A stretch of DNA of 64,000 bases from Tepidanaerobacteraceae bacterium (GCA_050949725.1 JBMNGH010000007.1:4622-68621), one strand, 5' to 3'. Shown: positions 20,303 through 44,326, counted from the stretch's first letter. Program-made: numbers and translations. Notes: generated from the letters alone by a model not told the origin.

Positions 20303-21925
20303 CTATGCTTCTTTGAGTTTTTCGAGTGTAAATATTATCTCATACATTAATCTATAGGGATTTAAAAGCGGATCATGGCCCAGCAAACTTGTAATTTTGT
20401 TTTTTCTATAAAAAATTGTATTCTTGTGTAAGTATAATTCATCAGATACGGCCTGCATATTTCCGTTATGTTCAATCAATTTTTCAAGTGTTTGCAGCAA
20501 TGATGATTTAGTTTGTAAATCATATTCTTTCAATCTTTCCAAAGCCTGATCTACAATTTTTTTAGTTGACTCTCTGTTCGCAAGTTGGTCTAAAAGAGTA
20601 TAAACACCTAAATCGGAATAAAAGATACAATTACCTCTTCCAAATATTTTCCTGCCCAATTTAATTGCTTTTATTGCTTCTTTATAACCTTTGGATATGT
20701 CCTGTATTTTGCCGAAATAATTGCAGATACCTATGGAGATAAACAGCTGGTTGTCTTTCGCGTATTTAATAATCCTATCACCCAGTTTTTTTGCACGTTT
20801 ATATAGGTTTTTTTCATCTTCCTTCCCCTCTAGCAAAACAATTATTAAATCACTTCTTAGTCCCACCAGATTTTTTGAATTGTCGTTTAAAATGATTTCC
20901 TCGATTTTTGGTAATATGAAATTTTTTGCATATAGCATACTGCCTTCTGCCTTGTTTTGTTTGTTTAGATCATTGAAATTATCAATATTACATATTAAAA
21001 GTAAATGCTTGTTTGTTAAATCCCAACCAAAACTTTTAGCTCTTGTGTGTGCAACCGTTTCATTGCTAAAATTCCATGTCATCAGGTCTGCTATAAAATC
21101 CCTTTTTAGGGTATCCTTCATATCTTCAAAGCGTTTCTTTTTTGTAAACATAAGCCCTATTGCTATAATGGCCTGTCCGATTGTCAATAATATTTTTTCA
21201 TCTTTGTCAATCATATCCAAAATTACTAAGTAACCATAGTATTGACTTGTCAATATGATCGGGTATATCAAAACTTTTTTTTGAGATACCCACAGAGGGG
21301 ATGGGTTACGGAAATCAACGATATTTCTTTTTACTATTTGTTTTATTTCAGGAATTTCCTCACTCTTAACCTTGTGTTTTGATATGCAAATATTATCACT
21401 ATCAAACAATGCTAACCTTTTTTTTATGATTGAACCTAATGTTGAAAGTAAATCATGTACATCTTTATCTGCTAAAATAACATCATACAATTGCTTTTGT
21501 ACATTTGATGCAAATAACAATTTCTCCTTTTCGATTTTTAATATTTCGTCCATTAATGGAGTTATAATGTCAACATATGCCATATCAGAGGGAACCAAGA
21601 TTAACGGTAAATTTAAGTTATTAGCGAGAGATATGACTTCTTCAGACACCTGTTTTAACCAAAATCCCAATGAGCATATAACCAGGCCGGAACAGGAGCG
21701 TTGTGCCAAAATCCTTATAATATTTAACTGTTTATCGATATCATCGGCAATAGAGTAAAAGGATGTTATGAATAATTCACCACCTCTAATCCAATTGGCT
21801 ACTTCAGAGGATGTGGCCTCCAAAACAGAGACGGAAGATATTTGTTTGTCAAGCCCTCCATGACCGGCTATTACTACCCCCTTTTTTAAGCCGCCTATTT
21901 CTATAGCTTTTCTTACAGATATCAT
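20303..21925 (-). CDS. PucR-family transcriptional regulator (paralog A)
   Basis: 540 aa. It has the N-terminal PucR-like ligand domain (VSVLEATSSEVANWIRGGELFITSFYSI) and a C-terminal PucR HTH (LYLHKNTIFYRKNKITSLLG). It aligns by eye along its whole length with 33529-35166. Confidence 0.85.
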   Translation of the reverse strand: MISVRKAIEIGGLKKGVVIAGHGGLDKQISSVSVLEATSSEVANWIRGGELFITSFYSIADDIDKQLNIIRILAQRSCSGLVICSLGFWLKQVSEEVISLANNLNLPLILVPSDMAYVDIITPLMDEILKIEKEKLLFASNVQKQLYDVILADKDVHDLLSTLGSIIKKRLALFDSDNICISKHKVKSEEIPEIKQIVKRNIVDFRNPSPLWVSQKKVLIYPIILTSQYYGYLVILDMIDKDEKILLTIGQAIIAIGLMFTKKKRFEDMKDTLKRDFIADLMTWNFSNETVAHTRAKSFGWDLTNKHLLLICNIDNFNDLNKQNKAEGSMLYAKNFILPKIEEIILNDNSKNLVGLRSDLIIVLLEGKEDEKNLYKRAKKLGDRIIKYAKDNQLFISIGICNYFGKIQDISKGYKEAIKAIKLGRKIFGRGNCIFYSDLGVYTLLDQLANRESTKKIVDQALERLKEYDLQTKSSLLQTLEKLIEHNGNMQAVSDELYLHKNTIFYRKNKITSLLGHDPLLNPYRLMYEIIFTLEKLKEA

Positions 21926-22109
21926 AATTAGCTCCTTTTTTTAAATTTATTAAAAAACAAATTTTTTGGCATCTTGGGCTTCATAATAGCAAATAAGGGT
22001 AACCTTAATTGTTACCCTTTTATATATTTCGGCATGCTATCAATAAATAATGTTACATATTTTATTTAAAACTATCAATATAACTAATTGGCAGGTAAAC
22101 CATATTTTT

Positions 22110-23570
22110 CTATTTTAGTTCTGCTAAAACATGTAGCAATAACTCCCATGAGCGATTTACAGAATTAAAATCTAAAGTCTCGTCCGGCGAGTGGACATTA
22201 TAAATATTTGGACCAAAGGATATTATATCGATTTCTTGTATATTGTTTTTAAAAAATCCGCACTCAAGCCCCGCATGCACTGCCGTTATCTGTGGCTCTG
22301 CGTTATATAGTTTTGTGTAAGTATTCACAAACAATTCCCGAATATTAGATTTGGGATCGTAATCCCATTCAGGATATTCGGAGTCCGACAATGTGTCAGC
22401 CTGAACGCGTTTTGCTATAAGTTCCATTTTGTTTAAAATATTATATTTTAGGCTTCTCTTTGAGCTCCTGATATTGCTTACAAATGTGACAGTGTTCTCA
22501 ACAGTGTTCACAACACCTAAATTAGTAGAGCTTTCAACTAGGCCCTTTATATCCATGCTCATCGTTTGAACACCATTAGGTATTGTCATTAACACAAATA
22601 TTAAATCGTCCAAGCTTTTATTTGAAAACACTTTTTTCGGCATATCTATTTCATTTATACTTATATTGACTTTTTCATCTGATGACATAAATTCGTTTTT
22701 AATTATTTGGTTCCATGATTCAACTTTACTTTTTAATTTGCCAAAGTCTTGGTTATCTATTAGTATTACCGACTCGGTTTTGCTCGGTATTATATTCATC
22801 TTGATTCCGCCATTGATTTCAGATAAACTGAAATTAATCGTGCTCTGAAGTTCATGCAAAAAGCGACCCATCAGTATATTTGAGTTGCCTCTCCCTTTAT
22901 CTATTTCCAAGCCTGAATGGCCTCCTTTAAGGCCGCTGATCGTAACTCTATATGGGACAAACTCTTTGGGAACGTCCTCCCAAACGATATCGAGTGAGAT
23001 TACATGTCTTATTCCACCGGCACAGCTGGCAACAAACACTCCTTCATCTTCAACATCTAAGTTTATCATGGTTTTACCCGTAATGTTAGTCATGTCAAGT
23101 TGGGCAGCCCCTTGAAGACCTTCTTCTTCATTGGCCGTGAAGATAACTTCTAATGGCGGGTGTGATATTTCTTTTGATTCCAGTATGGCTAAACTGATTG
23201 CCATTCCGATACCGTTATCTGCCCCAAGTGTTGTCCCGTTAGCCTTTATAGTATTTCCATCTATTACTAAGTCAATTGGATCCTTGTCAAAATCATGGGT
23301 TGAAGTGTCTGTTTTTGTACATACCATATCCATGTGGCTCTGCAGAATTACAGTAGGTGATTTTTCGTACCCTGATGTCCCAGGTTTTTTTATTATTACG
23401 TTATAGGCATCATCTTGTATAAATGTAAAGCCGTTTTGTTTTGCAAAGTCTACAAGGTATTTGCTTATCTTTTCTTCTTTGCCTGAGCATCTGGGGATCT
23501 GGCATATTTCTTCAAAAAACTTGAACACAGATTTTGGCTCAATATTATCTAATTTCCCCATTTTTTTCAC
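22110..23570 (-). CDS. pepD: aminoacyl-histidine dipeptidase (PepD, peptidase M20C)
   Basis: 486 aa with the PepD pattern: LDNIEPKSVFKFFEEICQIPRCSGKEEKISKY, LQSHMDMV, GADNGIGMA and NEEEG. Confidence 0.9.
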   Translation of the reverse strand: MKKMGKLDNIEPKSVFKFFEEICQIPRCSGKEEKISKYLVDFAKQNGFTFIQDDAYNVIIKKPGTSGYEKSPTVILQSHMDMVCTKTDTSTHDFDKDPIDLVIDGNTIKANGTTLGADNGIGMAISLAILESKEISHPPLEVIFTANEEEGLQGAAQLDMTNITGKTMINLDVEDEGVFVASCAGGIRHVISLDIVWEDVPKEFVPYRVTISGLKGGHSGLEIDKGRGNSNILMGRFLHELQSTINFSLSEINGGIKMNIIPSKTESVILIDNQDFGKLKSKVESWNQIIKNEFMSSDEKVNISINEIDMPKKVFSNKSLDDLIFVLMTIPNGVQTMSMDIKGLVESSTNLGVVNTVENTVTFVSNIRSSKRSLKYNILNKMELIAKRVQADTLSDSEYPEWDYDPKSNIRELFVNTYTKLYNAEPQITAVHAGLECGFFKNNIQEIDIISFGPNIYNVHSPDETLDFNSVNRSWELLLHVLAELK

Positions 23571-23631
23571 CTCAATGTTAACATTTACATAATTAAATTA
23601 TAACACACAAAAGTCTCTTTGCATCGGCCAT

Positions 23632-23922
23632 TTACTGCTCATCACAATTTTTTAGAATTTCTATTAGTTCAAAAGTCACTTCGTCCAACATGGAAATAAA
23701 CTTTTCTTCATCAGTCATTACCGATAACTTTTCATTTGCAATTTTTTCTGCAACCCTGTTTACTTCCTCATCGTCAAACAGATTGTATTTTTTGAGCAGA
23801 GCCATAAACTTTTCTATGGAATCTACAAGCCTGAAAGGGCCATACATCTTAGGTTCGTTTATACAGCCTTTTGCACTCGAAACAACATATGCCATATAAT
23901 CCAGTATGTCTCGCTTATTCAT
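23632..23922 (-). CDS. small conserved-looking hypothetical protein (96 aa)
   Basis: The ATG at 23922 overlaps the TGA of the upstream nitroreductase gene (ATGA), which suggests translational coupling. The protein is acidic and helical, and I cannot name a family with certainty. Its first 33 or so codons are duplicated at 28626-28750. Confidence 0.6.
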   Translation of the reverse strand: MNKRDILDYMAYVVSSAKGCINEPKMYGPFRLVDSIEKFMALLKKYNLFDDEEVNRVAEKIANEKLSVMTDEEKFISMLDEVTFELIEILKNCDEQ

Positions 23923-24446
23923 TTTTGCTCCCCCCATCGATTGATAAATGTGACTTCTTCTACAGGCCTCCTGGGAGGTGTTGAAGGTCTTTGGTCAGAA
24001 TAACCAAGGCTTATTATCAAATCTACGGAAATTTCATCCGGTAGATCTAGTATTCTCTTAACCGCCTCTTTATTGTATGATTTTACCGTGCAAGTGGCTA
24101 TTCCTTTTTCAGTAGCCATGAGCAGTATGTTCTGCGCTGCCATGGATACGTCTATTATGCTCAGCTCATCCCTGCCAAAAGCCCCTCCCCTTTCATAGGC
24201 CTTTTTACGGTCACTGCAAATCACTATCAGGTTCGGCGGGCCGCCTAGCAAACCTGGAGAAAATGCTTTGATTTGATTGCATATCTTTTCATCATCTACA
24301 ATTATAAAATACCAGGGCTGTATATTGCTCCCGGTTGGTGCATAGATGCCTGCTTCGATCAGTTCTTTAATCGTTTCTGTCGGCACTTTCTTTTTATCAT
24401 ATTTTCTGATACTTCTTCTTCTCTTTATTGTGTCCAAAATGCTCAT
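23919..24446 (-). CDS. nitroreductase-family protein
   Basis: The N-terminal RRSIRKY motif and the motifs APTGSNIQPW and ATEKGIATC place it in the FMN nitroreductase fold. Length is 175 aa. Confidence 0.85.
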   Translation of the reverse strand: MSILDTIKRRRSIRKYDKKKVPTETIKELIEAGIYAPTGSNIQPWYFIIVDDEKICNQIKAFSPGLLGGPPNLIVICSDRKKAYERGGAFGRDELSIIDVSMAAQNILLMATEKGIATCTVKSYNKEAVKRILDLPDEISVDLIISLGYSDQRPSTPPRRPVEEVTFINRWGEQK

Positions 24447-24487
24447 AAAATCTCCCTACCTCTTGTTTATTGTTTGAATAATTAATT

Positions 24488-24530
24488 GCTGTCAAAAGAA
24501 ATACGCTCTATGCGTATTTCTTTTGACAGC
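24488..24530 (-). other. perfect 19-bp inverted repeat (stem-loop) between the racemase and nitroreductase genes, with no U-tract
   Basis: GCTGTCAAAAGAAATACGC (24488-24506) pairs perfectly with GCGTATTTCTTTTGACAGC (24512-24530) around a 5-nt loop. Confidence 0.8.
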
Positions 24531-24548
24531 CGGGTATTTAACGTGAGT

Positions 24549-25280
24549 TTAAACTCGGCTCCAGATGTTTCGGTCTTTGTCACGTGGTGGGATATACGCT
24601 CTTTTGCTCTGAGATATGTTTAGCTTTATCAGTGATTCAAGGTACCTTATAGATACAGCAGCAGGATATAATACCGGAACTGAGTAGCCTTTTTCCTCTA
24701 GCTCTTGTGATAAAAGTTCGTCTACTCCTATCATGCCCGTACACCCAAGAATAATTGCTTGTGCACCGTCACGCTCTATTGCTTCAATAGATTTGTCAAG
24801 CAGGGCTTTGAGCAGTTTGTCTATATCAGATAGTTCTAATACGGGAATATCAACGGATTTCACTGATGCCAATTTTCCACTTAAGCCAACTTGTCTTCCA
24901 ACTTTTTCTATCAATGGCACTACTCCGTCGACAACTGTAACTACCGAAAATCTATGTGTCATATCAGCCGCATATAGCATTGATGCCCTGCAGGGGCCGA
25001 CTACGGGGATATCTAGTTTCTCTCTTGCTGCCTCTACTGCCGGATCTCCCATACAGCTAATAAATACCCCATCATATCCTTCAGCCTGTGCTTTTTCTGC
25101 AAGTTTGAGAATACCGGGTGCTGCTAATGCTTCATCATATTCCCCTTCAATTGATGCTGTGCCGTATTCTATTCTCTCAGCATCGATTTGCACATCTTCA
25201 GAAATAAATTTCTTTATTTCTTCTTTTGTATCATTTTCAAATTCCTTTGTGGTTATAGGGCAAATGACTTTGATTTTCAT
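24549..25280 (-). CDS. Asp/Glu/hydantoin racemase-family protein
   Basis: 243 aa. The N-terminus MKIKVICPITT and the two cysteine-containing half-sites (FISCMGDP and ILGCTGM) are typical of the hydantoin-racemase branch. Confidence 0.85.
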   Translation of the reverse strand: MKIKVICPITTKEFENDTKEEIKKFISEDVQIDAERIEYGTASIEGEYDEALAAPGILKLAEKAQAEGYDGVFISCMGDPAVEAAREKLDIPVVGPCRASMLYAADMTHRFSVVTVVDGVVPLIEKVGRQVGLSGKLASVKSVDIPVLELSDIDKLLKALLDKSIEAIERDGAQAIILGCTGMIGVDELLSQELEEKGYSVPVLYPAAVSIRYLESLIKLNISQSKRAYIPPRDKDRNIWSRV

Positions 25281-25309
25281 TTGTACTCCCTCCTTTACTT
25301 CCCCGTTTT

Positions 25310-26626
25310 TTACTTGAAATCAGCTTCTATATTTACATCTTTAACTGTTTGGCCAAACATATTTATGTTCATTGCTTTAAAGATATATACTAGCACTAGA
25401 TAGAGCACAAAACCCGCTACAAGTGAATTAATGCACTGAATTCCCCATTTTACTGAAAAGCCGATTATTGACGCAATGATCCAGGCAATAAAAGCCGGCC
25501 TTGAAATGTCTCCATATTCGGTGTCCTTATCAAAACTGTATTTACTTTTGTTGATGACAAAATAATCCGCTATTATTATACCTGCTACTGGAGGTACCCC
25601 AACTCCCAATATGGTCAGCCAATTGACGAAATAATCCGCAAGGCCGAAAACACCAGCGATGGTAGCTATTATACCGCATACCAATACTATTTTTGATTTT
25701 TTCACTTTGACTACATTTGAAAATGCCAGCGATGAGGAATACAAATTGTTGTCATTGGTTGTCCACTGTGCAGCGATGAGGACAATGAGCGCTGGTATGC
25801 CTAGACCTAATTGTATCATTGCAGCAGGTAAATCTCCCGTTCCTGTCGTCAAGCATGTTAGATATCCCGCTACGATTACAAATGAGTGCGCTATCATATA
25901 TCCTATAGCTGTTGCTATCAAGGATTGACCTGCATTCTTTGAGTATCTTGTGATATCTGCCTGGATTGCACCTCCAACTGCAAAGGCTCCTACTATGAGA
26001 ACAGCAGCTGCACCGTAACTCATAGTACCTTCAGGCCGTAACGCAAAAAGAGCATCCCAGCCTCCGGTGAGGTTTACAGCTTTTATTATACCCATAAGTG
26101 ATGTTATCAATATTGCAGGTGCTGCAATATTGCTTATTATGCTGAGCCCTCTGTATCCAATATATGCCGACGTCATCATCAAGAGGCCGCCCCATAAGCT
26201 TGCAAACTTTACTGATGTGATAAATCCTCCGTTTGGAAACATGGTGTTTATCGTCATGCCGAAGAACCCAACTTGATAGGCATACCATCCTACCAATGTG
26301 ACTGCTATAATCACGGAAATTACCATTGAGCCCTTTCTGCCAAAAGAATGCCTCGCCAGCATTGCCGTGCTTACACCTTCTCTGGCACCGGCTACACCAA
26401 CCAGACCACCATAAACTGTTAAAATTGCATTACCTATCAATGAGGCTATTATTGCTTCCCTTAGGTTGAGACCTGCTGCTAAAGCAGCTCCTGTAAATAG
26501 GCCGGCCATTGAAATACAAAATCCTATTGCAACTAAAGATACGTTAAATATACTCTTTCGACCCGATGCCGGTACTCGTGAAAGCGCATAGTCATTTTGG
26601 GCAGCAAGATTAGTATTGTTATCCAT
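25310..26626 (-). CDS. NCS1-family permease (cytosine/purine/hydantoin/allantoin transporter type), paralog A
   Basis: 438 aa with 12 hydrophobic spans and CodB-like motifs. It shares the exact string LGLGIPALIVLIAAQWTTNDNNLY with 35319-36617. Confidence 0.9.
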   Translation of the reverse strand: MDNNTNLAAQNDYALSRVPASGRKSIFNVSLVAIGFCISMAGLFTGAALAAGLNLREAIIASLIGNAILTVYGGLVGVAGAREGVSTAMLARHSFGRKGSMVISVIIAVTLVGWYAYQVGFFGMTINTMFPNGGFITSVKFASLWGGLLMMTSAYIGYRGLSIISNIAAPAILITSLMGIIKAVNLTGGWDALFALRPEGTMSYGAAAVLIVGAFAVGGAIQADITRYSKNAGQSLIATAIGYMIAHSFVIVAGYLTCLTTGTGDLPAAMIQLGLGIPALIVLIAAQWTTNDNNLYSSSLAFSNVVKVKKSKIVLVCGIIATIAGVFGLADYFVNWLTILGVGVPPVAGIIIADYFVINKSKYSFDKDTEYGDISRPAFIAWIIASIIGFSVKWGIQCINSLVAGFVLYLVLVYIFKAMNINMFGQTVKDVNIEADFK

Positions 26627-26931
26627 GTTTTATCCCCCTCAATTCATTTTCGAGTCATCTCATGGGTTGATTAGGATTAATCGGTGGTTTGTAACTAAAT
26701 TTTATTGATTGATATTACTCTTTAAGTACTCTTTGAGTTTAGCCTCTCAGTAAATCAATATGTTAAGATACCAATTAGATTTAAGTAAATATATTGCCGA
26801 AGTGTTCCTTAAAGAATAAATAATCCAGGAAATTATCCTTTACAAGCCAAAAATGCTTGTATTGAAAGTTGTGTATTTTTATATAATGTGGTAATCTAAT
26901 AAGGATTATGTCTCTTGGTATTTTAATAATA

Positions 26932-26979
26932 CCCTTGAAAGGTAAGTTCTTTTGAACTTACCTTTTTTTTCACCAAGGG
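26932..26979. terminator. compound hairpin between the DUF917 gene and the permease gene; the strong T8 tract is on the + strand
   Basis: The inner stem is GGTAAGTTC (26941-26949) with GAACTTACC (26954-26962). The outer stem is CCCTTG (26932-26937) with CAAGGG (26974-26979). On the + strand the inner stem is followed by TTTTTTTT, while on the minus strand only UUU follows. Confidence 0.55.
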
Positions 26980-27008
26980 CATTTTGTTATATCTGTAACC
27001 CCAATTTT

Positions 27009-28142
27009 TTACTTAAGCAAATCTTCAATCGGCACATAATCGAAGTCGAAGCCGAAATATCTGGGGCCTAAAATTCCTACACCTTTTTCTGTCCTGAACA
27101 TACTCCTTGCCTTAATTCCAAGCACCGCTACCTCGTCGCCTACCTTCAGTTTGGGGTTGGTTATGGGTTCGCCATCTTTTGAGCTGACTACTGTTATCAT
27201 ATCCGGGCTCGTTGCTACTACTTTATCATTGTTCCATGCTACATGGTTTTCGTTCTTGAACCATATTTTCATCACTTGGCCCGCATATTCTCCGCTGCCC
27301 TCTATTGTATGTGTTCCCCAATAGTAGCCAAGCTTGTCTTCTGTTTCTTTCTTTGTAACCTTACCTTTTATTAAAATCCAGCCTTCTAGCTTATCAGCAA
27401 CTGCCTTGACAGGATCTTTACCCGCTTCTCTTGCTTCCCTTATCATTTTCCCAAGCTCGTAACATTCTGTTAATGTCCCCGGGATTATTGCCTTTTTCAT
27501 TTCTTTGCCTGTCATCAAGAATCCGGTATCACCTGTGAGACCATATGCAGCAGCACTTATTTGCTTACCGATCCTCTCAACAATTCTGTAGTTGATCGCA
27601 TGTTTGATTACACTTACGTTTCCAAACTCATCCACAACAGATAGCGGCCACAACGGTATACCGTGCAGGTAAGGTGTTGTCTGCGGAATTTCAGGAATCG
27701 CTCTACCCGTGTAATCACCGTCTACTGCAGGTAGCCCATTGACCAATCCTGCTGCTATTCCACCTGGCGTGCTTGCCCCTCCTAATTCTAAAGGAACAAC
27801 CGCATCAATCTTTTTCCCCATGTATTTGGAAAGCTCTTTTATTGATTCGGCTATCCTCTGCTTCTCCGTATACTTGGAATCTGTCAGACCAAAACCTTCC
27901 ATCTCTTTCTTGACTTCTGGTGTGTGTGGTGCTATAGAGCCCATTAAAAATGGACATACTGTAATTGCGTCATCGGCTATATCATTTACGTCTACCCATC
28001 CGATTTCCTTGCCTGCCCTCAATTCTGTTAACAGTGAGTCCAGCCCGTTTTCTGCCAGGCCACCTCCGCCAGTTCCGTATAAAGTACAGCCCCTGACAAA
28101 GTCCCTAACCTCCATCTCTGTCTTTAACACTTTCTTAAACAT
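27009..28142 (-). CDS. DUF917-family protein
   Basis: 377 aa. The N-terminal motif VRGCTLYGTGGGG and the overall pattern match my memory of DUF917. It has a strong RBS (AAGGAGG). Confidence 0.8.
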   Translation of the reverse strand: MFKKVLKTEMEVRDFVRGCTLYGTGGGGLAENGLDSLLTELRAGKEIGWVDVNDIADDAITVCPFLMGSIAPHTPEVKKEMEGFGLTDSKYTEKQRIAESIKELSKYMGKKIDAVVPLELGGASTPGGIAAGLVNGLPAVDGDYTGRAIPEIPQTTPYLHGIPLWPLSVVDEFGNVSVIKHAINYRIVERIGKQISAAAYGLTGDTGFLMTGKEMKKAIIPGTLTECYELGKMIREAREAGKDPVKAVADKLEGWILIKGKVTKKETEDKLGYYWGTHTIEGSGEYAGQVMKIWFKNENHVAWNNDKVVATSPDMITVVSSKDGEPITNPKLKVGDEVAVLGIKARSMFRTEKGVGILGPRYFGFDFDYVPIEDLLK

Positions 28143-28389
28143 TTCTAGGCCTCCTTAAACATTTATTAATTAAATAAAATTCTTAATTTAATTTGAGTTT
28201 TTTATCACACCTCCTCCTAACTTTGATCAGGTATAATTTAAGTGGCTAAAAATTAAGATTTCAAAGTCTATTTTATCTTGGTTATTGTTCGAGTCATTCA
28301 ATTTTTGTATTATAAAACCCTTTGTTGTGATATCTAAAAAAAAGAGTATAATTTGTATCAAGATTACAAAAGAAAATACTAATCGGACT

Positions 28390-28525
28390 AGTTGTTCTGG
28401 CAGGAGAATTGATATACCAGTTTACCAAAGCTCTGAAGATTATCGAGTTGAATATGTGTTCTCGAGGTCATACTGTTGGTGGGCAACATATTATTAAACT
28501 GCAACATAGTCTTAGAATGATTCAA
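28390..28525 (+). pseudogene. frameshifted remnant of an alpha/beta-type SASP gene
   Basis: The DNA aligns with 20075-20200. One frame gives IDIPVYQSSEDY (intact gene: LNIPVYQGSEDY). A second frame gives SRGHTVGGQHIIKLQ (intact gene: SRDCGAVGGNMVRKMIQ). No start codon or N-terminus remains. Confidence 0.7.
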
Positions 28526-28625
28526 TGATTGAAATCAAAGTGGGGGGTAAATAATAATAGCCCTTTTGAAGGGCTTGAGTATGTTATAAATAACTAATAT
28601 ATTCTTTTCGATCGTTCAATCGCCA

Positions 28626-28750
28626 ACAAGCCTGAAAGGGCCGTACATTTTCGGTTCGTTTATACAGCCTTTTGCACTCGAAACAACATATGCCATATAA
28701 TCCAGTATGTCTCGCTTATTCATTTTTGCTCCCCCATCGATTGATAGATG
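28626..28750 (-). pseudogene. 125-bp duplicated fragment of the nitroreductase 3' end / small-ORF 5' end junction
   Basis: This stretch is near-identical to 23825-23950. I count about six substitutions by eye, concentrated in CATACATCTTAGG versus CGTACATTTTCGG, plus one C deleted from the C6 run. It is in the same orientation as the intact copy. Confidence 0.85.
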
Positions 28751-28839
28751 AATACAGGCTATTATATATGGAAACCATAAAAGAGGAGATATAGTTTTGT
28801 CGGCTAAGGATTTTTGATGGGGATAATCTGATTAAATAT

Positions 28840-28901
28840 AAGAACCCCACCCGACGACGCAATCAAAGATTGCTGTCGGGGCCCGGGAACCTTGTTGTTT
28901 T
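28840..28901 (+). repeat. dispersed hairpin repeat, copy 4
   Basis: The sequence is AAGAACCCCACCCGACGACGCAATCAAAGATTGCTGTCGGGGCCCGGGAACCTTGTTGTTTT. The outer helix is CCCGAC/GTCGGG. Confidence 0.9.
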
Positions 28902-28933
28902 ATAAAAAATGACAATAAAAGAGAGCAAGGTAT

Positions 28934-29074
28934 TCAGCCCTGCTCTTCATTCTTTTTTTCTTGTTTATTCTTTTCTGCCAGTACTGTCTTTCCACAATAC
29001 GGACATTTCCATGCCTCAAGATCTGCAGCGGAATATGAGCGTCTGCTGCAAAAAGGACATGTTGAGTATGGCAA
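28934..29074 (-). CDS. possible 46-aa zinc-ribbon protein (below the ORF-track cutoff)
   Basis: My own translation gives (TTG)PYSTCPFCSRRSYSAADLEAWKCPYCGKTVLAEKNKQEKKNEEQG, with two CxxC pairs. The TTG start lies 6 nt after GGGGGG. It is in a different frame from the 62-aa track ORF at 28900-29088. Confidence 0.3.
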   Translation of the reverse strand: MPYSTCPFCSRRSYSAADLEAWKCPYCGKTVLAEKNKQEKKNEEQG

Positions 29075-29241
29075 TAAAAACCCCCCAAACCTTGCGGTTT
29101 AACACTAAAACTTAATATACGTCTCCGCTTCGCTCTATTAAATAATTCCCCAAAGTTTTCAAAAATCCTTCATAAGGATAAACAAAGATTAGGCAAATTT
29201 ATGATTTACGGTGATTATATAAAATTTATGGGTGATAATAA

Positions 29242-29946
29242 ATGGACACTTTTTTTAAAATATTGGCTTATAGTTCTTTTTCCGGGCTGGCAGTAGTTAT
29301 CGGCGGTTATTTAGGTACTAAGAAGATACCTGACAAAATCCTCGCGTTTGTATTAACATTTGGTTCAGGTGTCCTTCTCTCAGTACTATCTTTTTCACTA
29401 ATGCATGAAGCATATCAACTTTCCGGGCCGGTATGCACCTCCTTAGCATTTATAATAGGTGGAGTTTCATTTTACCTATTAGAATACTTCGTATCGAAAC
29501 ACGTTGCTGAAGGTACCGGGATGATAATCGGCACTGCAATGGACGACCTACCAGAAGCTCTCAGCATGGGAATAGGTTTTGCAACTGGGAAGGGCAAGTT
29601 GGGTATTGTACTTGCTTTGTCAATATTTTTGCACAACATACCTGAAGGGATTTCATCAACCCAAGAGCTTATAGATAAGTCTAAATTGACTACAAAATCC
29701 GCAATGTTATTAGCTTTCCTGGTAGCCTTACTCGACCCTTTTGCCGCTTTAACAGGATACTATATATTAAGAAATGTGAGCACCGAATTACACGGCATGA
29801 TAATGGCTTTTTCCGGCGGATCCATACTGTTCATGACAGGAACCGATATGATTCCAAAAGCACATAAAATCGGCTCAAGGCTTGAAAATTTCGGAATGCT
29901 GGTCGGTTTTCTGACAACTTTTTTGCTCAGCAGAATTATGGGTTAA
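29242..29946 (+). CDS. ZIP-family metal (zinc) transporter
   Basis: 234 aa. It has the motif HNIPEGISS and a ZupT-like TM pattern. Confidence 0.85.
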   Translation: MDTFFKILAYSSFSGLAVVIGGYLGTKKIPDKILAFVLTFGSGVLLSVLSFSLMHEAYQLSGPVCTSLAFIIGGVSFYLLEYFVSKHVAEGTGMIIGTAMDDLPEALSMGIGFATGKGKLGIVLALSIFLHNIPEGISSTQELIDKSKLTTKSAMLLAFLVALLDPFAALTGYYILRNVSTELHGMIMAFSGGSILFMTGTDMIPKAHKIGSRLENFGMLVGFLTTFLLSRIMG

Positions 29947-30013
29947 TACCCATCGCTTTTAAATTGTGATATAATTGGTCTAACATAATAGGGATTATCA
30001 CTAACCACCGGAG

Positions 30014-30439
30014 GTGTCGCTATTGGAAAGTATCGATGTGGCAAAAATAGCAATTAAAATGGCCCTTTCCTCGAGAACTGAAGAAATGGAACTGAAACAG
30101 TCGTATTCAAAAATGAACGTAAAGGTTTGTGCAGTTGATTTTGGAGGAGATTTCGTAAATTCAGTCAAGAAAATCATTGAGCGAGCCCTTGTAGCAGCAA
30201 AAAGGGAAGGCGTGATAGAAGAAACTCACGTTTTTGAAGGGGCTGTTGTAGGCGCAACCCGAGAAGCCGTCTCGCAGATTGTCCCAAAAGCACTTGGACT
30301 TAATATCGGGGGTAAAATCGGAATAGCAAGACATGGCGAACATATAAGTGTGGCTATGTTTTTTGGGGTAGGTTTTTTAAATTTAAACGATGTTGTCATC
30401 GGTTTGGGGCACAGATCTATACCTAATCAGGTAACTTAG
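30014..30439 (+). CDS. HutP-family RNA-binding antiterminator-like protein
   Basis: About 140 aa. It can be aligned by eye with B. subtilis HutP: KVCAVDFGGD versus KVCLGKVGSMD, THVFEGAVVGATREA versus SHALYHATMEAL, HISVAMFFGVGF versus WIAVSLYGTIG, and a C-terminal GLGHRSI versus GVGINHI. The TTG at 30023, 8 nt after GGAGG, is a better start than the GTG at 30014. Confidence 0.8.
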   Translation: MSLLESIDVAKIAIKMALSSRTEEMELKQSYSKMNVKVCAVDFGGDFVNSVKKIIERALVAAKREGVIEETHVFEGAVVGATREAVSQIVPKALGLNIGGKIGIARHGEHISVAMFFGVGFLNLNDVVIGLGHRSIPNQVT

Positions 30440-30458
30440 GTAACTTAAACAAAGCATA

Positions 30459-30487
30459 TTGACAATGTGAGTATTATGAAATATAAT
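30459..30487 (+). promoter_or_regulatory. consensus sigma-A promoter TTGACA-17-TATAAT in front of the ABC importer leader
   Basis: TTGACA lies at 30459-30464 and TATAAT at 30482-30487, separated by an exact 17-nt spacer. Confidence 0.65.
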
Positions 30488-30502
30488 TGGTTTAAATACT
30501 TG

Positions 30503-30521
30503 TAGGATGGTAGTATGGTAG
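30503..30521 (+). promoter_or_regulatory. three TAG triplets in 8-nt register (candidate HutP-type binding site)
   Basis: The sequence is tgTAGgatggTAGtatggTAGgag, with TAG at 30503, 30511 and 30519. It starts roughly 10-15 nt downstream of the predicted transcription start. Confidence 0.45.
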
Positions 30522-30533
30522 GAGATCGGTTAT

Positions 30534-30565
30534 GAAAACACTCTTACCGGGGTGTTTTTTGTTTT
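30534..30565 (+). terminator. weak A/U-rich terminator-like hairpin plus T-tract in the ABC leader
   Basis: GAAAACAC (30534-30541) pairs with GTGTTTTT (30552-59) around a 10-nt loop, and runs into TTTTTTGTTTT. An alternative helix, GGTAGG (30517-22) with CTTACC (30543-48), includes the third TAG. Confidence 0.4.
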
Positions 30566-30608
30566 CTCCCCCATGCTGACCGTTTTTATTATTAAGGGGG
30601 TAATTTAT

Positions 30609-31640
30609 TTGAAAAGGTTTTTTGCTCTATGTATGTTGTCACTTTTAGTTTTGTCTCTTATGCTGGCTGGTTGTGGAGACCAGAACACCGGCAGCCAATC
30701 TTCTGAAGTTTCTAATGAAGGACAATCAGATACTACTGAAAAGGTGTTCAAGATTGGTATTTCACAATTCGTAGAACACCCGGCACTCGACTCTGCTAGA
30801 GAAGGGTTTATTGACGGTTTAAAGGAGTCAGGTTTTGAAGAAGGAAAAAACGTAATATTTGAATTGGAAAATGCTCAAGCGGATTTTCCTACAACCCAAA
30901 CGATCGCAAGCAAATTTGTGGCAGATGAAGTAGATTTAATTCTGGCAATAGCTACACCCTCCGCACAATCGGCGGCCAATGCCACAAAAGACATACCAAT
31001 CATGATAACGGCGGTGACTGACCCTGTTGAGGCCGGCCTTGTCAAAAGCCAGGAAAAACCCGATACAAATGTAACTGGCACAACAGACATGAATCCAATA
31101 AAAGACCAACTAGAGCTTCTAAAGAAAATACTGCCAAGTGCTAATAATGTGGGCATAATCTACAATGCCGCTGAACCCAATTCAAAAGTACAGGTCGACA
31201 TAGCAAAAGATGTGTCAGATGATATCGGTTTGACTATACTTGAAGCGACAGTTGCAAACAGTAATGAGGTCAACCAAGCCATTCAAACCTTGGTCGGAAA
31301 AGTAGACGCATTGTATGTACCAACCGATAACACGGTCGCCTCTGCCATTGGGGCTGTTGTTAAAGTATGCAATGATTCAAAAATACCCGTGATAGGTGCC
31401 GAAAGAGGGCATGTTGAAGGAGGAGCGCTAGCGACTTTGGGTATTGACTACTACCTTCTTGGTAAACAGACCGGAAACATGGCAGCCCGAGTTTTACAGG
31501 GCGAGAATCCACATAATATTCCAGTTGAAGGTTCAAAGGATCTAAAACTTATTATAAATATGACGTCAGCAAAAACCCTTGGAATAAATATACCGGATGA
31601 ACTTAAATCAAAAGCTGATGAGATATTAGGAACTGATTAG
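30609..31640 (+). CDS. ABC transporter substrate-binding lipoprotein (BMP/ABC_sub_bind type)
   Basis: A lipobox (LSLMLAGCG) follows a TTG start at 30609, which lies after AAGGGGG. The mature part has the motifs KIGISQFVEHPALD and VTGTTD, typical of the uncharacterised PF04392-like binding proteins. The track ORF start at 30552 lies inside the leader hairpin. Confidence 0.85.
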   Translation: MKRFFALCMLSLLVLSLMLAGCGDQNTGSQSSEVSNEGQSDTTEKVFKIGISQFVEHPALDSAREGFIDGLKESGFEEGKNVIFELENAQADFPTTQTIASKFVADEVDLILAIATPSAQSAANATKDIPIMITAVTDPVEAGLVKSQEKPDTNVTGTTDMNPIKDQLELLKKILPSANNVGIIYNAAEPNSKVQVDIAKDVSDDIGLTILEATVANSNEVNQAIQTLVGKVDALYVPTDNTVASAIGAVVKVCNDSKIPVIGAERGHVEGGALATLGIDYYLLGKQTGNMAARVLQGENPHNIPVEGSKDLKLIINMTSAKTLGINIPDELKSKADEILGTD

Positions 31641-31653
31641 AGGTGTCCCGTAA

Positions 31654-32577
31654 ATGTGGCTTAACACTTTACTTACATCTGCCGAGCAGGGTCTGGTATT
31701 TGGAATCATGGCCCTTGGCGTATACATTACATTTAAAATTCTCAAATTTGCCGATTTAACTGTTGACGGAAGTTTCCCTCTCGGTGCAGCTGTGGCCGCT
31801 TCATTAATAGTGAGCGGCCAAAATCCTTTTCTCGCAACAGCTGTAGCTTTTGCTGCAGGCGGAGGGGCAGGTATCTTTACTGGATTGCTAAACACCAAGG
31901 CTAAAATAAGTGACTTGTTAGCAGGAATTTTAACAATGACATCATTGTACTCAATTAATTTGAGAATAATGGGAAAACCGAATATACCTTTATTAAACCA
32001 ACCTACTATTTTTACTTTTGTGCAGGATTTAATTAAAAGCATGATTCCCGGTTTTCCTTTAAAATATATGTTTATAATCATCTTTATAATTACCGCCTTA
32101 GCGGTTAAAATCCTTTTGGACATTTTCCTCAAGACGCAAATGGGTTTTTCATTACGAGCAACAGGGGATAACCCACAAATGATACGAAGTCAAGGGGTCA
32201 ATACTGATATTGCCAAAATTACCGGTCTCTGCCTTTCGAATGCGATCATAGCCACTGCTGGAGCTCTTGTAGCCCAATATCAGGGATTTGCCGATGTAGG
32301 AATGGGAATAGGAACAGTAGTTGCCGGCCTTGCATCTGTAATAATAGGTGATGCTCTTATCGGCGAAAGATCTATTTTCTTTAGTACATTGAGTGCTCTG
32401 TTCGGGTCTTTTTTGTACCGGCTAAGCATTTCCCTTGTACTGTCTTTTAGATTAGCCCAGGCCTCAGATCTAAAGTTGCTCACAGCATTAGTAGTGATAG
32501 CAGCGCTTACTTTACCGCAATTTAAAAAGACGTTAAAGATAAACTTCGGGAGGGGGGCTTCTGATGCTCAAAATTGA
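31654..32577 (+). CDS. ABC transporter permease
   Basis: 307 aa with multiple TM spans. It resembles the branched-chain/BMP-type permease pattern. It is located between the binding-protein and ATPase genes, with a 14-nt overlap with the ATPase gene. Confidence 0.85.
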   Translation: MWLNTLLTSAEQGLVFGIMALGVYITFKILKFADLTVDGSFPLGAAVAASLIVSGQNPFLATAVAFAAGGGAGIFTGLLNTKAKISDLLAGILTMTSLYSINLRIMGKPNIPLLNQPTIFTFVQDLIKSMIPGFPLKYMFIIIFIITALAVKILLDIFLKTQMGFSLRATGDNPQMIRSQGVNTDIAKITGLCLSNAIIATAGALVAQYQGFADVGMGIGTVVAGLASVIIGDALIGERSIFFSTLSALFGSFLYRLSISLVLSFRLAQASDLKLLTALVVIAALTLPQFKKTLKINFGRGASDAQN

Positions 32578-33358
32578 AAGTGTTTCAAAGACATTTAATC
32601 GAAATACCCCTAATGAAAACAAGGTTTTTGACGGACTTTCACTTGAAATAAATGAGGGCGACTTTGTCACAATAATTGGCAGCAACGGAGCTGGTAAGTC
32701 AACACTTCTCAATATAATTGCGGGGGTCTTCCCTATAGATGCGGGCTCAATAAAGCTCGATAACAATGACATATCCAATTTCCCCGAATATAAAAGGGCT
32801 GCCTATATTGGGAGGGTTTTCCAGGATCCAATGCTGGGAACTTCTCCATCGATGACAATCGAAGAAAATCTGTCTCTCGCCTATTCGCGCTGTGAAAACT
32901 TTAGTTTAACCTGGGGACTAAATCCCTTGAAAAGGAGTCTATTTAAAAAGTACCTGTCAGACATCCCTCTAGGGTTGGAAAAAAGACTGACAACAAAAGT
33001 TAGGCTGCTTTCAGGTGGCCAAAGACAGGCACTGACACTTGTTATGGCAACCATGAAAAAGCCGAGGCTCCTTCTGTTAGACGAACACACCGCCGCTCTA
33101 GACCCGAAAACCGCCATACTTGTAAATGACTTGACCGAACAAATCATCCGCAAAGACAAAATTACGACACTTATGGTGACCCATAACTTGGAACATGCTA
33201 TCAAAATGGGCAACAGACTTATTATGATGCATATGGGAAAAGTAGTTTTGGATATAAGTGGTGAGGAAAAAGCCACGATGACAATTCCCATGTTACTGAA
33301 AAAATTCGAACAGACGCAGGGTGAACAATTTGTCAATGACAGGGTTATGCTCGCTTAG
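32564..33358 (+). CDS. ABC transporter ATP-binding protein
   Basis: It has Walker A (GSNGAGKST), the signature LSGGQRQ and Walker B (LLLLDEHTAALD). Confidence 0.9.
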   Translation: MLKIESVSKTFNRNTPNENKVFDGLSLEINEGDFVTIIGSNGAGKSTLLNIIAGVFPIDAGSIKLDNNDISNFPEYKRAAYIGRVFQDPMLGTSPSMTIEENLSLAYSRCENFSLTWGLNPLKRSLFKKYLSDIPLGLEKRLTTKVRLLSGGQRQALTLVMATMKKPRLLLLDEHTAALDPKTAILVNDLTEQIIRKDKITTLMVTHNLEHAIKMGNRLIMMHMGKVVLDISGEEKATMTIPMLLKKFEQTQGEQFVNDRVMLA

Positions 33359-33528
33359 AATTTATTCATAATTGAATTTTGCATAACAAGTATTCTCACC
33401 ATTTCTGAAGATATTGATTAACTTGATTACCGCAACTATAATAATATTATAATACTACTTTTATTAATTTTTATTAAATTTGCCTCAATTTTCCGATCGA
33501 CTGATTATGTTGGAGGGAAAATATACAT

Positions 33529-35166
33529 ATGATCATCAAGGTTAAAGATGTGCTTACTTTTGGCGGCCTAAAAAATGCAAAGCTAGTTGCGGGTGCAGGT
33601 GGCATCGAAAACGAAGTTGAGAGCATAAGTGTCTTGGAGGTAGCCGAGTCCGCCATTGGAAGGTGGGTCCTTAAAAATCAGCTATATATTACTTCCTTTT
33701 ATGCCATACATTCAAATGTAGAAATGCAGAAAATAGTCATCAAAACATTGGTCGATTCTAAATGTTGTGGCTTGGTATTGTGCCACATTAATTTATGGGT
33801 TAAGAATATTCATCCCGAAGTTATTGACCTATGCAATCAACTTAACTTTCCACTAATAGTAGCCGATTCTGATGTTTCTTATGTTGAGATCTTAAATCCC
33901 ATTATTGAGAGACTGATGAAAATAAACATGGCTGACACTCAGCTAATGCTCAGTGCACAAAACAAGCTGATAGATATAGTTGCCACTAATGATCAATTAG
34001 AGGATATTTTTAGAAGTATAACAAGTGTCTTTAAAAGCGAAATTTCATTTTATGATTTGGATAATAAGTGCATTTTTGCCAACTGTTATTGCAGTTCTGT
34101 CACAATTTCCAAAATCGAGAATTTTTTAAAGGATTCCTGTTACAGCTTGTTTGCTGAATTGAAAAACAATTCTTTTACAACGAAAACTATTGATGGAAAA
34201 TCATGGATTATATATCCTATTAAAGCTGTAGGCGTATTTTACGGCTTTGTTGTTGTTTTAAACAGCTTCGATAGCCCTGAAATTGCCCAAAATTTGATAA
34301 AAAATATAGCCAAGATGTGTACACTGATTTACACCAAAAAAAGTAGGCTTAAAGAACTGCAAGAAATTTATGTCCAAAATTATATCAGCGATCTGATAAC
34401 CTGGAATTTTAGAAACGACGATGTTGCAATCAAATCTGGTTTAGACCTGGGTTGGGATATAAGAAATAAATCCTACCTAGTTATTATAAATATTAACAGT
34501 ATTCAAGAGTATTTGTTTCGTAAAGAGGTAAAAGATATACAAAACTATGTGAAAAAATATCTTTATCCTCTCATTGTAGAAGAAGTAAAATCATTTAATC
34601 CTAAAAATTTAATCGGTTATAGAAGTGATATGGTTTTTATACTGATAGAAAGAGATAAAAAACTTGATGAGGAAAATATAGAAACAGTGACTGCTAACAG
34701 AATATTAAAACTTTGCTCGGAACATTTCCAGGGTTCTGTATCAATAGGAATCAGTGATTACATTTCTGACTATACAAGAATTCCCACCAGCTATGTTGAA
34801 GCTACAAATGCTGCTATTCTCGGCCGTAAATTTTTCGGTGAAAATAAGGTTACAAAATATTCCGACCTCGGTTTTTTAATGTTGTTAAAAGAGATGAAAA
34901 AAACCAAGAATACAGATATGATTATCGATTATTTGTTGCAACCCCTTATTGAATATGATAGGCTAAATTATACAACCCTCGTAAAAACATTTGAGTGTCT
35001 GCTGGAGAACAATATGGATGCTACTAGGGTTTCCGAAGCCTTGTTCGTTCACAAGAATACTGTAAATTACAGGAAAGGCAAAATAATAGAGATTTTAGGT
35101 AAAAATCCTTTCGAAATGCCGCATTTGATAAATTATCTCTTGGCATACACTTTACAAAAGTTGTAA
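33529..35166 (+). CDS. PucR-family transcriptional regulator (paralog B)
   Basis: 545 aa with the same architecture as 20303-21925 (ISVLEVAESAIGRWVLKNQLYITSFYAI and a C-terminal HTH LFVHKNTVNYRKGKIIEILG). Confidence 0.85.
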   Translation: MIIKVKDVLTFGGLKNAKLVAGAGGIENEVESISVLEVAESAIGRWVLKNQLYITSFYAIHSNVEMQKIVIKTLVDSKCCGLVLCHINLWVKNIHPEVIDLCNQLNFPLIVADSDVSYVEILNPIIERLMKINMADTQLMLSAQNKLIDIVATNDQLEDIFRSITSVFKSEISFYDLDNKCIFANCYCSSVTISKIENFLKDSCYSLFAELKNNSFTTKTIDGKSWIIYPIKAVGVFYGFVVVLNSFDSPEIAQNLIKNIAKMCTLIYTKKSRLKELQEIYVQNYISDLITWNFRNDDVAIKSGLDLGWDIRNKSYLVIININSIQEYLFRKEVKDIQNYVKKYLYPLIVEEVKSFNPKNLIGYRSDMVFILIERDKKLDEENIETVTANRILKLCSEHFQGSVSIGISDYISDYTRIPTSYVEATNAAILGRKFFGENKVTKYSDLGFLMLLKEMKKTKNTDMIIDYLLQPLIEYDRLNYTTLVKTFECLLENNMDATRVSEALFVHKNTVNYRKGKIIEILGKNPFEMPHLINYLLAYTLQKL

Positions 35167-35178
35167 ATTTGTTAATTA

Positions 35179-35230
35179 TATGCATCTGTTTGTGTGTTTG
35201 AACAAACGGATGCATATTTTTTTATTTTTT
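35179..35230 (+). terminator. intrinsic terminator after PucR paralog B
   Basis: TATGCATCTGTTTG (35179-35192) pairs with CAAACGGATGCATA (35203-35216) with one G-U pair, followed by a T-rich run (35217-35230). Confidence 0.75.
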
Positions 35231-35276
35231 GCAATAATGTTTTAAAAAAATGCATATTATATACTTGAGTTAAACA

Positions 35277-35300
35277 AGCTAAAATCATAGCTAAAATCAT
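35277..35300 (+). repeat. exact tandem 12-bp repeat AGCTAAAATCAT x2 immediately upstream of the RBS of NCS1 permease B
   Basis: The sequence reads directly as AGCTAAAATCATAGCTAAAATCAT, followed by ATAGGGAGGAG and the start codon at 35319. Confidence 0.9.
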
Positions 35301-35318
35301 ATAGGGAGGAGATGAGTG

Positions 35319-36617: not shown

Positions 36618-36650
36618 AACAAATAAAAATATCTTTAAGGAGGTTTTTCA

Positions 36651-43583: not shown

Positions 43584-43652
43584 CTGCTTTTGATTTGTCC
43601 AACTATTTCAAAAAAATTCTATGTACAACTTACTTCTAATTGTATCTAGTTT

Positions 43653-44165: not shown

Positions 44166-44326
44166 CGGACATCCCTCCAATTGTCAATAATATAATGTTT
44201 ATAAAATTATAACAAATATTGTTAGAATAACAAAATCTTAATTGACCTCATCTGCAAACGCCCCTATGTTAACAAGACCACATGTTTACTTTAAAACCAT
44301 CGTTTTGGCAACATCCCGAAAAAAAC

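Follow-up and report, generated by a model that had tools for sequence, protein, structure and literature searches.

A stand-alone DUF917 protein and a cyclodipeptide-oxidase-like pair in a candidate locus for the breakdown of small cyclic amides in an anaerobic bacterium

Seven genes on the minus strand at positions 20303-28142 of a 64,000-nucleotide stretch of DNA from a Tepidanaerobacteraceae bacterium (GCA_050949725.1 JBMNGH010000007.1:4622-68621; the full 64-kb stretch is hereafter called the window) encode a DUF917 protein, an NCS1 permease, an Asp/Glu/hydantoin racemase, a nitroreductase-fold flavoprotein, a small protein of 96 amino acids (aa), a PepD-type M20 peptidase and a PucR-family regulator. 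In the present study, we found that the flavoprotein and the small protein form a pair resembling cyclodipeptide oxidase (CDO), and that the DUF917 gene together with an importer gene is the core of a modular gene set. The locus may be a PucR-regulated system for the uptake and breakdown of a small cyclic amide, likely a 2,5-diketopiperazine, which would be opened by DUF917 and finished by PepD; we give this reading somewhat less than an even chance. The gene identities, the family memberships, the conserved CDO residues, the synteny and the modularity are directly established. An earlier, sequence-only reading of the window had proposed an uncharacterised catabolic route for a hydantoin-like, cyclic-amide or dipeptide-like compound, and a route for a cyclic-amide or dipeptide-like compound is still the most reasonable interpretation of the gene set.

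The seven open reading frames (ORFs) were found at the coordinates given in that reading, and each has a strong profile match in Pfam or NCBIfam, by which all seven of its family calls are borne out (Table 1). The small CDOB-like ORF can be read as 96 aa from the ATG at 23922 or as 101 aa from an upstream ATG at 23937; its orthologue in Thermacetogenium phaeum is 96 aa long. Translational coupling of this gene with the nitroreductase gene had also been proposed, and the 4-nt ATGA stop/start overlap is indeed legible in the sequence. The DUF917 protein is 99% identical to a protein of a metagenome-assembled genome (MAG) labeled "Thermoanaerobacterales bacterium", the host being an uncultured member of the Bacillota, and the sequence occurs in anaerobic digester, bioreactor and landfill metagenomes. 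The PucR protein presumably activates the locus in response to the substrate.

The nitroreductase and the 96-aa protein had been treated as two separate unknowns, which does not hold, as together they form a CDOA/CDOB-like pair. The two best Protein Data Bank (PDB) matches of the CDOA-like protein were 9exv_A (1.2e-24) and AlbA of Streptomyces noursei, 8uc3_A (1.7e-23), and the only significant PDB matches of the CDOB-like protein were AlbB, 9exv_C (2.9e-5) and 8uc3_D (1.7e-3), so that AlbA and AlbB of S. noursei are among the two best structure matches for each subunit. Conservation was checked by reading HMMER alignments against the residues named in the AlbAB structure paper (Andreas et al., Nat Commun 2024; PMC11055893). 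AlbA R24, R28, S54, N55, C135, V137, S139 and R175 are kept as R10, R14, S40, N41, C119, V121, S123 and R159, which includes the arginines for the phosphate of flavin mononucleotide (FMN), the S54/N55 equivalents and the CxVxS strand. AlbB E33, P34, Y37, R41 and M78 are all kept in the small subunit, Y37 being the proposed catalytic base (PMC11055893). Among the checked positions of the FMN site, the interface and the active site, the only differences were P136 to T and G138 to K in AlbA and G79 to T in AlbB. The position of AlbA C115, the residue of the covalent FMN, is D99 in the window protein, and the CDOAs outside cyclodipeptide synthase (CDPS) clusters that are analysed in PMC11055893 are likewise without Cys115. 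In further contrast to AlbAB, the window pair has no CDPS partner, no CDPS gene being found among the window ORFs scanned; AlbAB uses O2 whereas the host of the window is an anaerobe, and the gene context of AlbAB is biosynthetic whereas that of the window pair is catabolic. Since the characterised CDOs are described as specific for the 2,5-diketopiperazine scaffold (PMC11055893), the presence of this pair shifts the substrate hint to diketopiperazines rather than hydantoins.

To see the cluster in context, we use the results of a scan of one genome per species, in which 398 stretches were found to encode a DUF917 relative; 78 loci with 49-82% identity to the window protein were analysed by tblastn, ORF clustering and Pfam, and partners were counted within 10 kb of DUF917. 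A transporter of any kind is present in 57 of the 78 loci: an NCS1 permease directly beside DUF917 in 29, and a Dpp/Opp-type ATP-binding cassette (ABC) importer (SBP_bac_5, OppC_N, oligo_HPY) in 28, the two never occurring together. The other partners are PucR (38 loci), the racemase (32), a 348-aa NicX-like protein (25), CDOA with CDOB (21), PepD (11, in several phyla including Thermotogae, Aerophobetes and Anaerolineae), CN_hydrolase (six) and DUF1177 (five). A Christensenella MAG (L015) repeats the full seven-gene set with the order and the common strand seen in the window, and sub-modules recur in dozens of loci from several phyla, so that the gene set is conserved elsewhere, as the sequence-only reading required. 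In T. phaeum (L085), PucR, DUF917, five Dpp genes, CDOA, CDOB, a NicX-like gene and an ArgE/DapE-type M20 gene form a tight run on the same strand. At the other extreme, a minimal unit of PucR, DUF917 and NCS1 only is found in Tissierella, Facklamia, Eubacterium minutum and Acidaminobacter, and the recurrence of such units suggests that one DUF917 step yields an ordinary metabolite. The importer type swaps between NCS1 and Dpp-type even among DUF917 orthologues that are at least 66% identical, and this substitution of one type for the other indicates a peptide-like substrate. On the partner counts, the minimal units and the interchangeable transporters, DUF917 and an importer are the core, and all other genes, including the CDO genes, are accessory modules. 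The downstream hydrolases of these loci (PepD, ArgE/DapE-type M20, CN_hydrolase and the M29-like NicX-like protein) are of kinds acting on small peptides or acyl-amino compounds. The loci come from Bacillota, Chloroflexota, Thermotogae, Bipolaricaulota, Aerophobetes, Spirochaetes, Alphaproteobacteria and archaea, and cultivable strains with orthologous loci include Tissierella praeacuta DSM 18095, T. phaeum, Syntrophaceticus schinkii and Acidaminobacter hydrogenoformans. Large ORFs neighboring DUF917 in the related loci were considered as HyuA/HyuB candidates and turned out to be ABC exporters, CoA enzymes and kinases. Tandem arrangements of two or three DUF917 paralogues are frequent (L029, L031, L052, L061, L077 and L089); such paralogues could form hetero-oligomers or differ in stereo- or regio-specificity.

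The 377-aa ORF is a DUF917 member, as had been proposed, with both Pfam domains far above their cut-offs of 27 bits. The family has been renamed S-Me-THD in Pfam (PF06032 and PF20906), and NCBIfam curates two equivalog models within it, for thiohydantoin desulfurase (NF058529) and S-methyl-thiohydantoin desulfurase (NF058532). The window protein scores below both cut-offs (66.5 against 440 and 57.9 against 450 bits, in partial matches covering residues 211-353) and is therefore a family member but not one of those desulfurases. With these curated models, DUF917 as a family can no longer be called wholly uncharacterised. The window protein shares with the desulfurases the two-domain architecture, and with them and the structure 2o3i the family-wide motifs GGGG, E119, DxD...R147, NE...W and PD; it differs from the desulfurases in matching the models over the C-terminal part only and in its gene context, and these differences, together with the low scores, place it in a different, unassigned subfamily. 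The cleft between the two domains has a lining of invariant residues, namely GGGG, E119, D141, D143, R147, N297, E298 and D314. A literature search for thiohydantoin desulfurase or S-Me-THD found no open-access paper. The desulfurases presumably serve in ergothioneine breakdown, where we take them to replace the C2 sulfur of a thiohydantoin with oxygen by hydrolysis, an assumption for which the searchable literature gave no confirmation. An AlphaFold2 model of the window protein (pLDDT 90.8) had 2o3i, a structural-genomics entry, as its sole significant PDB fold match in Foldseek (E 6e-19, TM 0.75), and sequence and profile searches of the PDB likewise returned 2o3i only and no liganded structure. 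In the fold search there was no likeness to amidohydrolase-type or ASKHA-type hydantoinases. According to PMC11055893, sequence and structure comparisons suggest that DUF917 proteins are hydantoinases, but our fold search gave no support for this.

A search of plasmid proteins yielded DUF917 relatives with no more than 27-35% identity to the window protein. In all seven sampled loci of this distant group (L086-L092; hosts Lactiplantibacillus, Listeria, Parageobacillus, Rhizobium, Mesorhizobium, Ketogulonicigenium and Haloferax), the DUF917 gene adjoins a gene for a HyuA-like hydantoinase/oxoprolinase of about 515 aa, usually overlapping it by a few bases, so that the two are translationally coupled. 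HyuA/HyuB-type enzymes, such as N-methylhydantoinase, 5-oxoprolinase and caprolactamase, open lactam and ureide rings in an ATP-dependent manner, and the HyuA-like partner of the sister subfamily therefore speaks indirectly for a part of DUF917 in hydrolysing rings. An example of the pairing in C. difficile is found in the literature. The HyuA-paired loci resemble that of the window in that PucR and a cytosine-type permease often occur with DUF917, or an ABC importer does, and in one case AroM and M20 neighbors as well; they differ in the HyuA-like partner itself, for which neither the window nor any of the 78 loci of its subfamily gave a match. Adjacency of DUF917 to hydantoinase/oxoprolinase genes, which the sequence-only reading had tentatively stated, is therefore correct for the distant subfamily and not for the window's own. 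Gene context separates the DUF917 proteins into two classes, one HyuA-paired and one stand-alone, and the window's subfamily belongs to the latter. No HyuB gene adjoins the DUF917/HyuA-like pair, although in the Ketogulonicigenium locus a hydantoinase A/B pair lies apart from it, about 2.3 kb upstream. In the distant subfamily, DUF917 may accordingly take the place of the HyuB subunit of a two-component ring-opening enzyme.

The remaining enzymes show how far the likeness to hydantoin-utilization (hyu) clusters goes. The permease scores 296 bits with the cytosine permease model NF008241, under its cut-off of 326, and only 26 bits with the allantoin permease model; among solved structures it matches CodB (7qoa, 3.2e-58, 201 bits) far better than Mhp1 (2jln/4d1a, 1.7e-3, 20.8 bits). 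The best PDB matches of the racemase are the allantoin/hydantoin racemases 3qvj (1e-30), 5lfd and 2eq5, and both catalytic cysteine motifs align (SCMGDP with Cys76, and GCTGM); family and motifs fit the hydantoin type, although the substrate cannot be read from the sequence. The M20 enzyme had been called PepD-type, in agreement with its score above the TIGR01893 cut-off and with its full-length match to solved PepD structures (3mru, 3e-107, residues 7-482; 2qyv, 2e-105), while it scores only 36 bits with the allantoate amidohydrolase model. A HyuA-like tblastn query had no match in the 64-kb window, and no amidohydrolase-type hydantoinase was found among the window ORFs scanned with Pfam, a few mid-sized ORFs lying outside the scan; the reported absence of a hydantoinase stands to this extent. 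The cluster thus shares with classical hyu clusters an NCS1-superfamily permease, a two-cysteine hydantoin/allantoin-type racemase and an M20-family hydrolase. However, the permease is CodB-type and not Mhp1/HyuP-type, the M20 enzyme is a PepD dipeptidase and not an N-carbamoyl-amino-acid amidohydrolase, and neither type of hydantoinase was found, so that the hyu analogy drawn earlier is weak. Failing on three of the four defining features, the locus is, by its gene content, not a classical hyu cluster.

One possible route that accommodates these genes begins with import of the ring compound by the CodB-type NCS1 symporter, or by the Dpp-type ABC importer in other genomes. The two-cysteine racemase would interconvert stereoisomers at a ring C-alpha, and the CDOA/CDOB flavoenzyme would carry out a C-alpha/C-beta redox step on the ring, which is taken as accessory because most of the related loci are without CDO genes. 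The stand-alone DUF917 protein would then add water to a ring carbonyl carbon and so open the ring, and the resulting dipeptide would be split by PepD, with expression under the control of PucR. From the gene set we infer which compound is the substrate, in which direction the CDO step runs and, most of all, that DUF917 opens the ring. A diketopiperazine is favored for several reasons: the scaffold specificity stated for characterised CDOs in PMC11055893; the alternative importer, which is a peptide-type ABC system; the downstream enzymes, which are dipeptidase- or deacylase-like and not carbamoylases; and the minimal units of DUF917 and an importer, which are sensible if one hydrolysis gives a dipeptide for housekeeping peptidases. 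The NCBIfam models for (S-methyl-)thiohydantoin desulfurases are counted as further support, as they place the family on such rings. In a more general form, which we consider doubtful, stand-alone DUF917 proteins of this subfamily would be ATP-independent 2,5-diketopiperazine hydrolases at the core of a widespread modular salvage system of anaerobic bacteria and archaea, with O2-free CDO-like filaments and ring-epimerizing racemases.

Several points weigh against diketopiperazine opening by DUF917. Any activity of this DUF917 subfamily is predicted from sequence alone, its characterised relatives presumably exchange the exocyclic C2 sulfur without opening the ring, and the Foldseek search with the DUF917 model yielded no mechanistic clue. 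The permease is closest to a cytosine carrier and the racemase to allantoin/hydantoin racemases, so that a five-membered ureide is still plausible as the substrate. The CDO genes are missing from 56 or 57 of the 78 loci, and the link to diketopiperazines is therefore drawn from an accessory module. All of the characterised CDOs are described as requiring O2 (PMC11055893), and the organism of the window lives in anaerobic digesters. Finally, strong hairpins after the DUF917 and racemase genes may break the cluster into separate transcripts.

The main alternative is a hydantoin- or imidazolone-type pathway, in which DUF917, acting like its characterised relatives, would hydrolytically exchange an exocyclic C2 group in a desulfurase- or deiminase-like step, or would open a five-membered ureide, the racemase would act on the hydantoin C5, and other hydrolases would finish; 5-substituted hydantoins, allantoin-like ureides and 2-thio-, 2-imino- or 2-alkylthio-imidazolones are the candidate substrates. 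We regard it as unlikely but deserving of serious attention. The curated (S-methyl)thiohydantoin desulfurase models lie within the DUF917 family, but the window protein reaches 66 bits where 440 are needed; the nearest solved relatives of the racemase are allantoin and hydantoin racemases, and PucR and NCS1 proteins commonly belong to the catabolism of purines and ureides, but the permease is neither Mhp1- nor PucI-type, and half of the transporters in the related loci are Dpp/Opp-type peptide importers. Hydantoin- or allantoin-like substrates are favored by the authors of PMC11055893, and a CN_hydrolase, of a family that includes carbamoylases, accompanies DUF917 in six loci and is also found in another module of the window (Table 1). 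However, the window and the minimal PucR-DUF917-NCS1 units yielded neither a carbamoylase-type M20 enzyme nor a hydantoinase, and the M20 enzyme of the cluster is a genuine PepD.

Another possibility is that the ring is opened by the NicX-like protein (M29-fold, with a His/His/Asp metal site) or by an M20 enzyme, and that DUF917 carries out an isomerization, hydration or deamination. NicX-like genes are present in 25 of the 78 loci and twice in the window, where one copy is accompanied only by a PucR and an NCS1 gene of its own; the positions of the metal ligands are kept, and the substrate of NicX, 2,5-dihydroxypyridine, would resemble an oxidized diketopiperazine ring. Nevertheless, many loci have DUF917 and a transporter without a NicX-like or M20 gene, so that the first step would still fall to DUF917; moreover, NicX is an O2-dependent dioxygenase, and a hydrolase role of its anaerobic relatives is equally conjectural. 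We therefore judge this improbable. That the cluster is biosynthetic and serves, like the CDO clusters with a CDPS, to tailor a natural product of the diketopiperazine or hydantoin type is very improbable: all four CDOs with an assigned role are biosynthetic and PMC11055893 allows such a role, but the scan of window ORFs revealed neither a CDPS nor a non-ribosomal peptide synthetase, the genes constantly found alongside encode importers, peptidases and a catabolic regulator of the PucR type, and the window CDOA has no Cys115, which, according to the same paper, occurs only in CDPS-linked CDOAs. Hardly credible at all is a chance neighborhood in which the permease and PepD serve ordinary cytosine and dipeptide use and DUF917 is independent. 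A 382-nt gap with a hairpin follows DUF917, another hairpin precedes CDOA, and no shared operator motif could be demonstrated, as would be expected of unrelated genes; but this explanation is largely refuted by synteny, as NCS1 is directly beside DUF917 in 29 loci, PepD is within 10 kb of it in 11 of 78, and the complete seven-gene order recurs in L015.

CDO-like clusters without CDPS have been described before. Andreas et al. (PMC11055893) catalogued them as clusters of unknown function; there they make up 88% of 274 CDO operons, occurrences in anaerobes are noted, and the neighbors enriched around their CDO genes are hydantoin racemase, DUF917, transporters and peptidases. The cluster at 20303-28142 belongs to this class, as it has CDOA and CDOB, a hydantoin racemase, DUF917, a transporter and a peptidase and no CDPS was found, and the Syntrophaceticus schinkii contig (L010) and the T. 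phaeum CDO pair (L085) are contained in the Supplementary Data of the same paper. Like those clusters, it has overlapping CDOA and CDOB genes, no Cys115 and the same enriched neighbors. It differs in that the published analysis is centered on CDOB, whereas here DUF917 and the transporter are the core and the CDO genes are accessory (21 of 78 loci); the window also adds a CodB-type NCS1 permease and PepD, a combination not mentioned in the available text of that paper. Because the association was already published in 2024 (PMC11055893), the window is a further case of a described but uncharacterised cluster class. What is added here is the core of DUF917 and an importer with CDO as accessory, the mutual exclusion of NCS1 and Dpp importers, the distinction of HyuA-paired and stand-alone DUF917 classes, and the failure of the hyu analogy on three of four features.

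Cyclic dipeptides are plentiful in heated and fermented protein and in peptone media, and occur as microbial signals. Bacteria that degrade diketopiperazines are known, among them Paenibacillus chibensis. No gene for a diketopiperazine ring-opening enzyme is named in the open literature searched, and the locus is for this reason worth attention: loci of this type offer candidates in the form of one constant enzyme (DUF917), interchangeable importers and a dipeptidase. If diketopiperazine opening is true, it would give a function to the large stand-alone branch of DUF917 and would explain why most of the CDO-like enzymes sit outside biosynthetic clusters, and it would leave to be explained how a CDO can function in the absence of O2. 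If DUF917 acts instead on a hydantoin- or imidazolone-type ring, this would still be new enzymology, of narrower interest.

Table 1. Features of the cluster and of related modules in the 64-kb window
Feature	Position	Strand	Details
DUF917 protein (S-Me-THD_N + S-Me-THD_C)	27009-28142	-	377 aa; PF06032 141 bits, PF20906 210 bits
NCS1 permease, CodB-type	25310-26626	-	438 aa; PF02133
Asp/Glu/hydantoin racemase, two-cysteine	24549-25280	-	243 aa; PF01177, 140 bits
CDOA-like nitroreductase-fold flavoprotein	23919-24446	-	175 aa; PF00881
CDOB-like small subunit, DUF6092	23632-23922 (or 23937)	-	PF19585, 89 bits
PepD, M20C dipeptidase	22110-23570	-	486 aa; TIGR01893 590.7 bits, cut-off 343.75
PucR-family transcription regulator	20303-21925	-	540 aa; PucR, GGDEF_2 and HTH_30 domains
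Stable stem-loop directly after the DUF917 stop, in the 382-nt gap before the permease	26928-26983	-	RNA fold
Perfect 19-bp stem-loop between racemase and CDOA	24488-24530	-	Terminator scan
Palindromic stem-loop between PepD and PucR, terminator-like on both strands	21995-22019	.	9-bp stem, 4 GC pairs
Relic of the CDOA 3' end and the first 33 CDOB codons, upstream of DUF917	28616-28750	-	125-nt direct repeat of 23825-23950
PucR2	33529-35166	+	34% identical to first PucR; Pfam, blastp
NCS1b	35316-36617	+	57% identical to first permease; Pfam, blastp
NicX-like metalloprotein	36651-37697	+	NicX 7cn3, 3.7e-12
SBP_bac_5 (third module)	49294-50937	-	
M20 peptidase (third module)	46925-48376	-	
Second NicX-like gene (third module)	45801-46889	-	
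CN_hydrolase (third module)	44840-45637	-	
CDOA-like nitroreductase without visible CDOB (third module)	43653-44180	-	
Isochorismatase-like hydrolase (third module)	43056-43583	-	

Scans for promoters and terminators gave counts near the shuffled expectation, and only the three hairpins of Table 1 were retained. The stem-loop after DUF917 folds at -29.8 kcal/mol (z = -4.2; none of 200 shuffles folds as well) and has no clear U-tract and no Rfam match; it could act as a partial terminator or in RNA stability. The 121 nt around the stem-loop between racemase and CDOA fold at -37.2 kcal/mol (z = -6.4), the arm sequence is unique within the window, and the tail is AT-rich and not a U-run; this inverted repeat could act in processing or stability or, as a palindrome, bind a protein. 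From these hairpins and the palindrome between PepD and PucR, the transcript may be split into DUF917, NCS1-racemase, CDOA-CDOB-PepD and PucR. The genes are transcribed, as metatranscriptome contigs from four digester runs hold fragments of every one of them, at low depth; these contigs are too short to address co-transcription, and only the NCS1b/NicX-like junction is spanned, by one contig. In the long intergenic regions between 19500 and 30500, a permissive Rfam search revealed neither a riboswitch nor a leader. A shared PucR box was also sought in nine upstream regions; a single 10-mer, ATGACTCGAA, was common to the regions upstream of DUF917 and NCS1, about 0.35 such matches being expected by chance, and it was not used.

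The relic upstream of DUF917 is 97% identical to 23825-23950 and holds a 35-aa ORF, MNKRDILDYMAYVVSSAKGCINEPKMYGPFRLVGD. The two copies of the 125-nt repeat bracket DUF917, NCS1, the racemase and CDOA, and the same CDOA/CDOB relic is present in an independent contig from the Joint Genome Institute (L079). The relic resembles a scar left by a duplication or rearrangement that gave rise to the present gene order. In a nearby region, contigs of two biogas-fermenter metatranscriptomes (X27 and X28) join 28192 to 34896, with only 21 nt on the shorter side, and skip 6.7 kb containing Zip, HutP, the ABC genes and most of PucR2; the junction could be a strain variant or an assembly chimera.

Two related modules at 33529-37697 and 43056-50937 had been missed by the sequence-only reading. 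In the NicX-like protein of the former, His, His and Asp occupy the positions aligned with the iron ligands H265, H318 and D320 of NicX; in an anaerobe this protein cannot act as a dioxygenase. With the cluster at 20303-28142 there are three modules, and by their gene content about 30 kb of the window look like an island for peptide-like nitrogen compounds. HutP belongs to a family of histidine-responsive RNA-binding antiterminators, and its proximity to PepD raised cyclo(His-Pro) or carnosine as a possible substrate; this was set aside, as HutP stands before an ABC importer of its own and its place beside DUF917 is not kept elsewhere. In the segment 30014-33358 (plus strand), the hutP gene precedes genes for a PF04392 binding protein, a permease and an ATPase, not hut catabolic genes, and an 11-mer, ACCAATTATAT, lies upstream of both hutP and the binding-protein gene.

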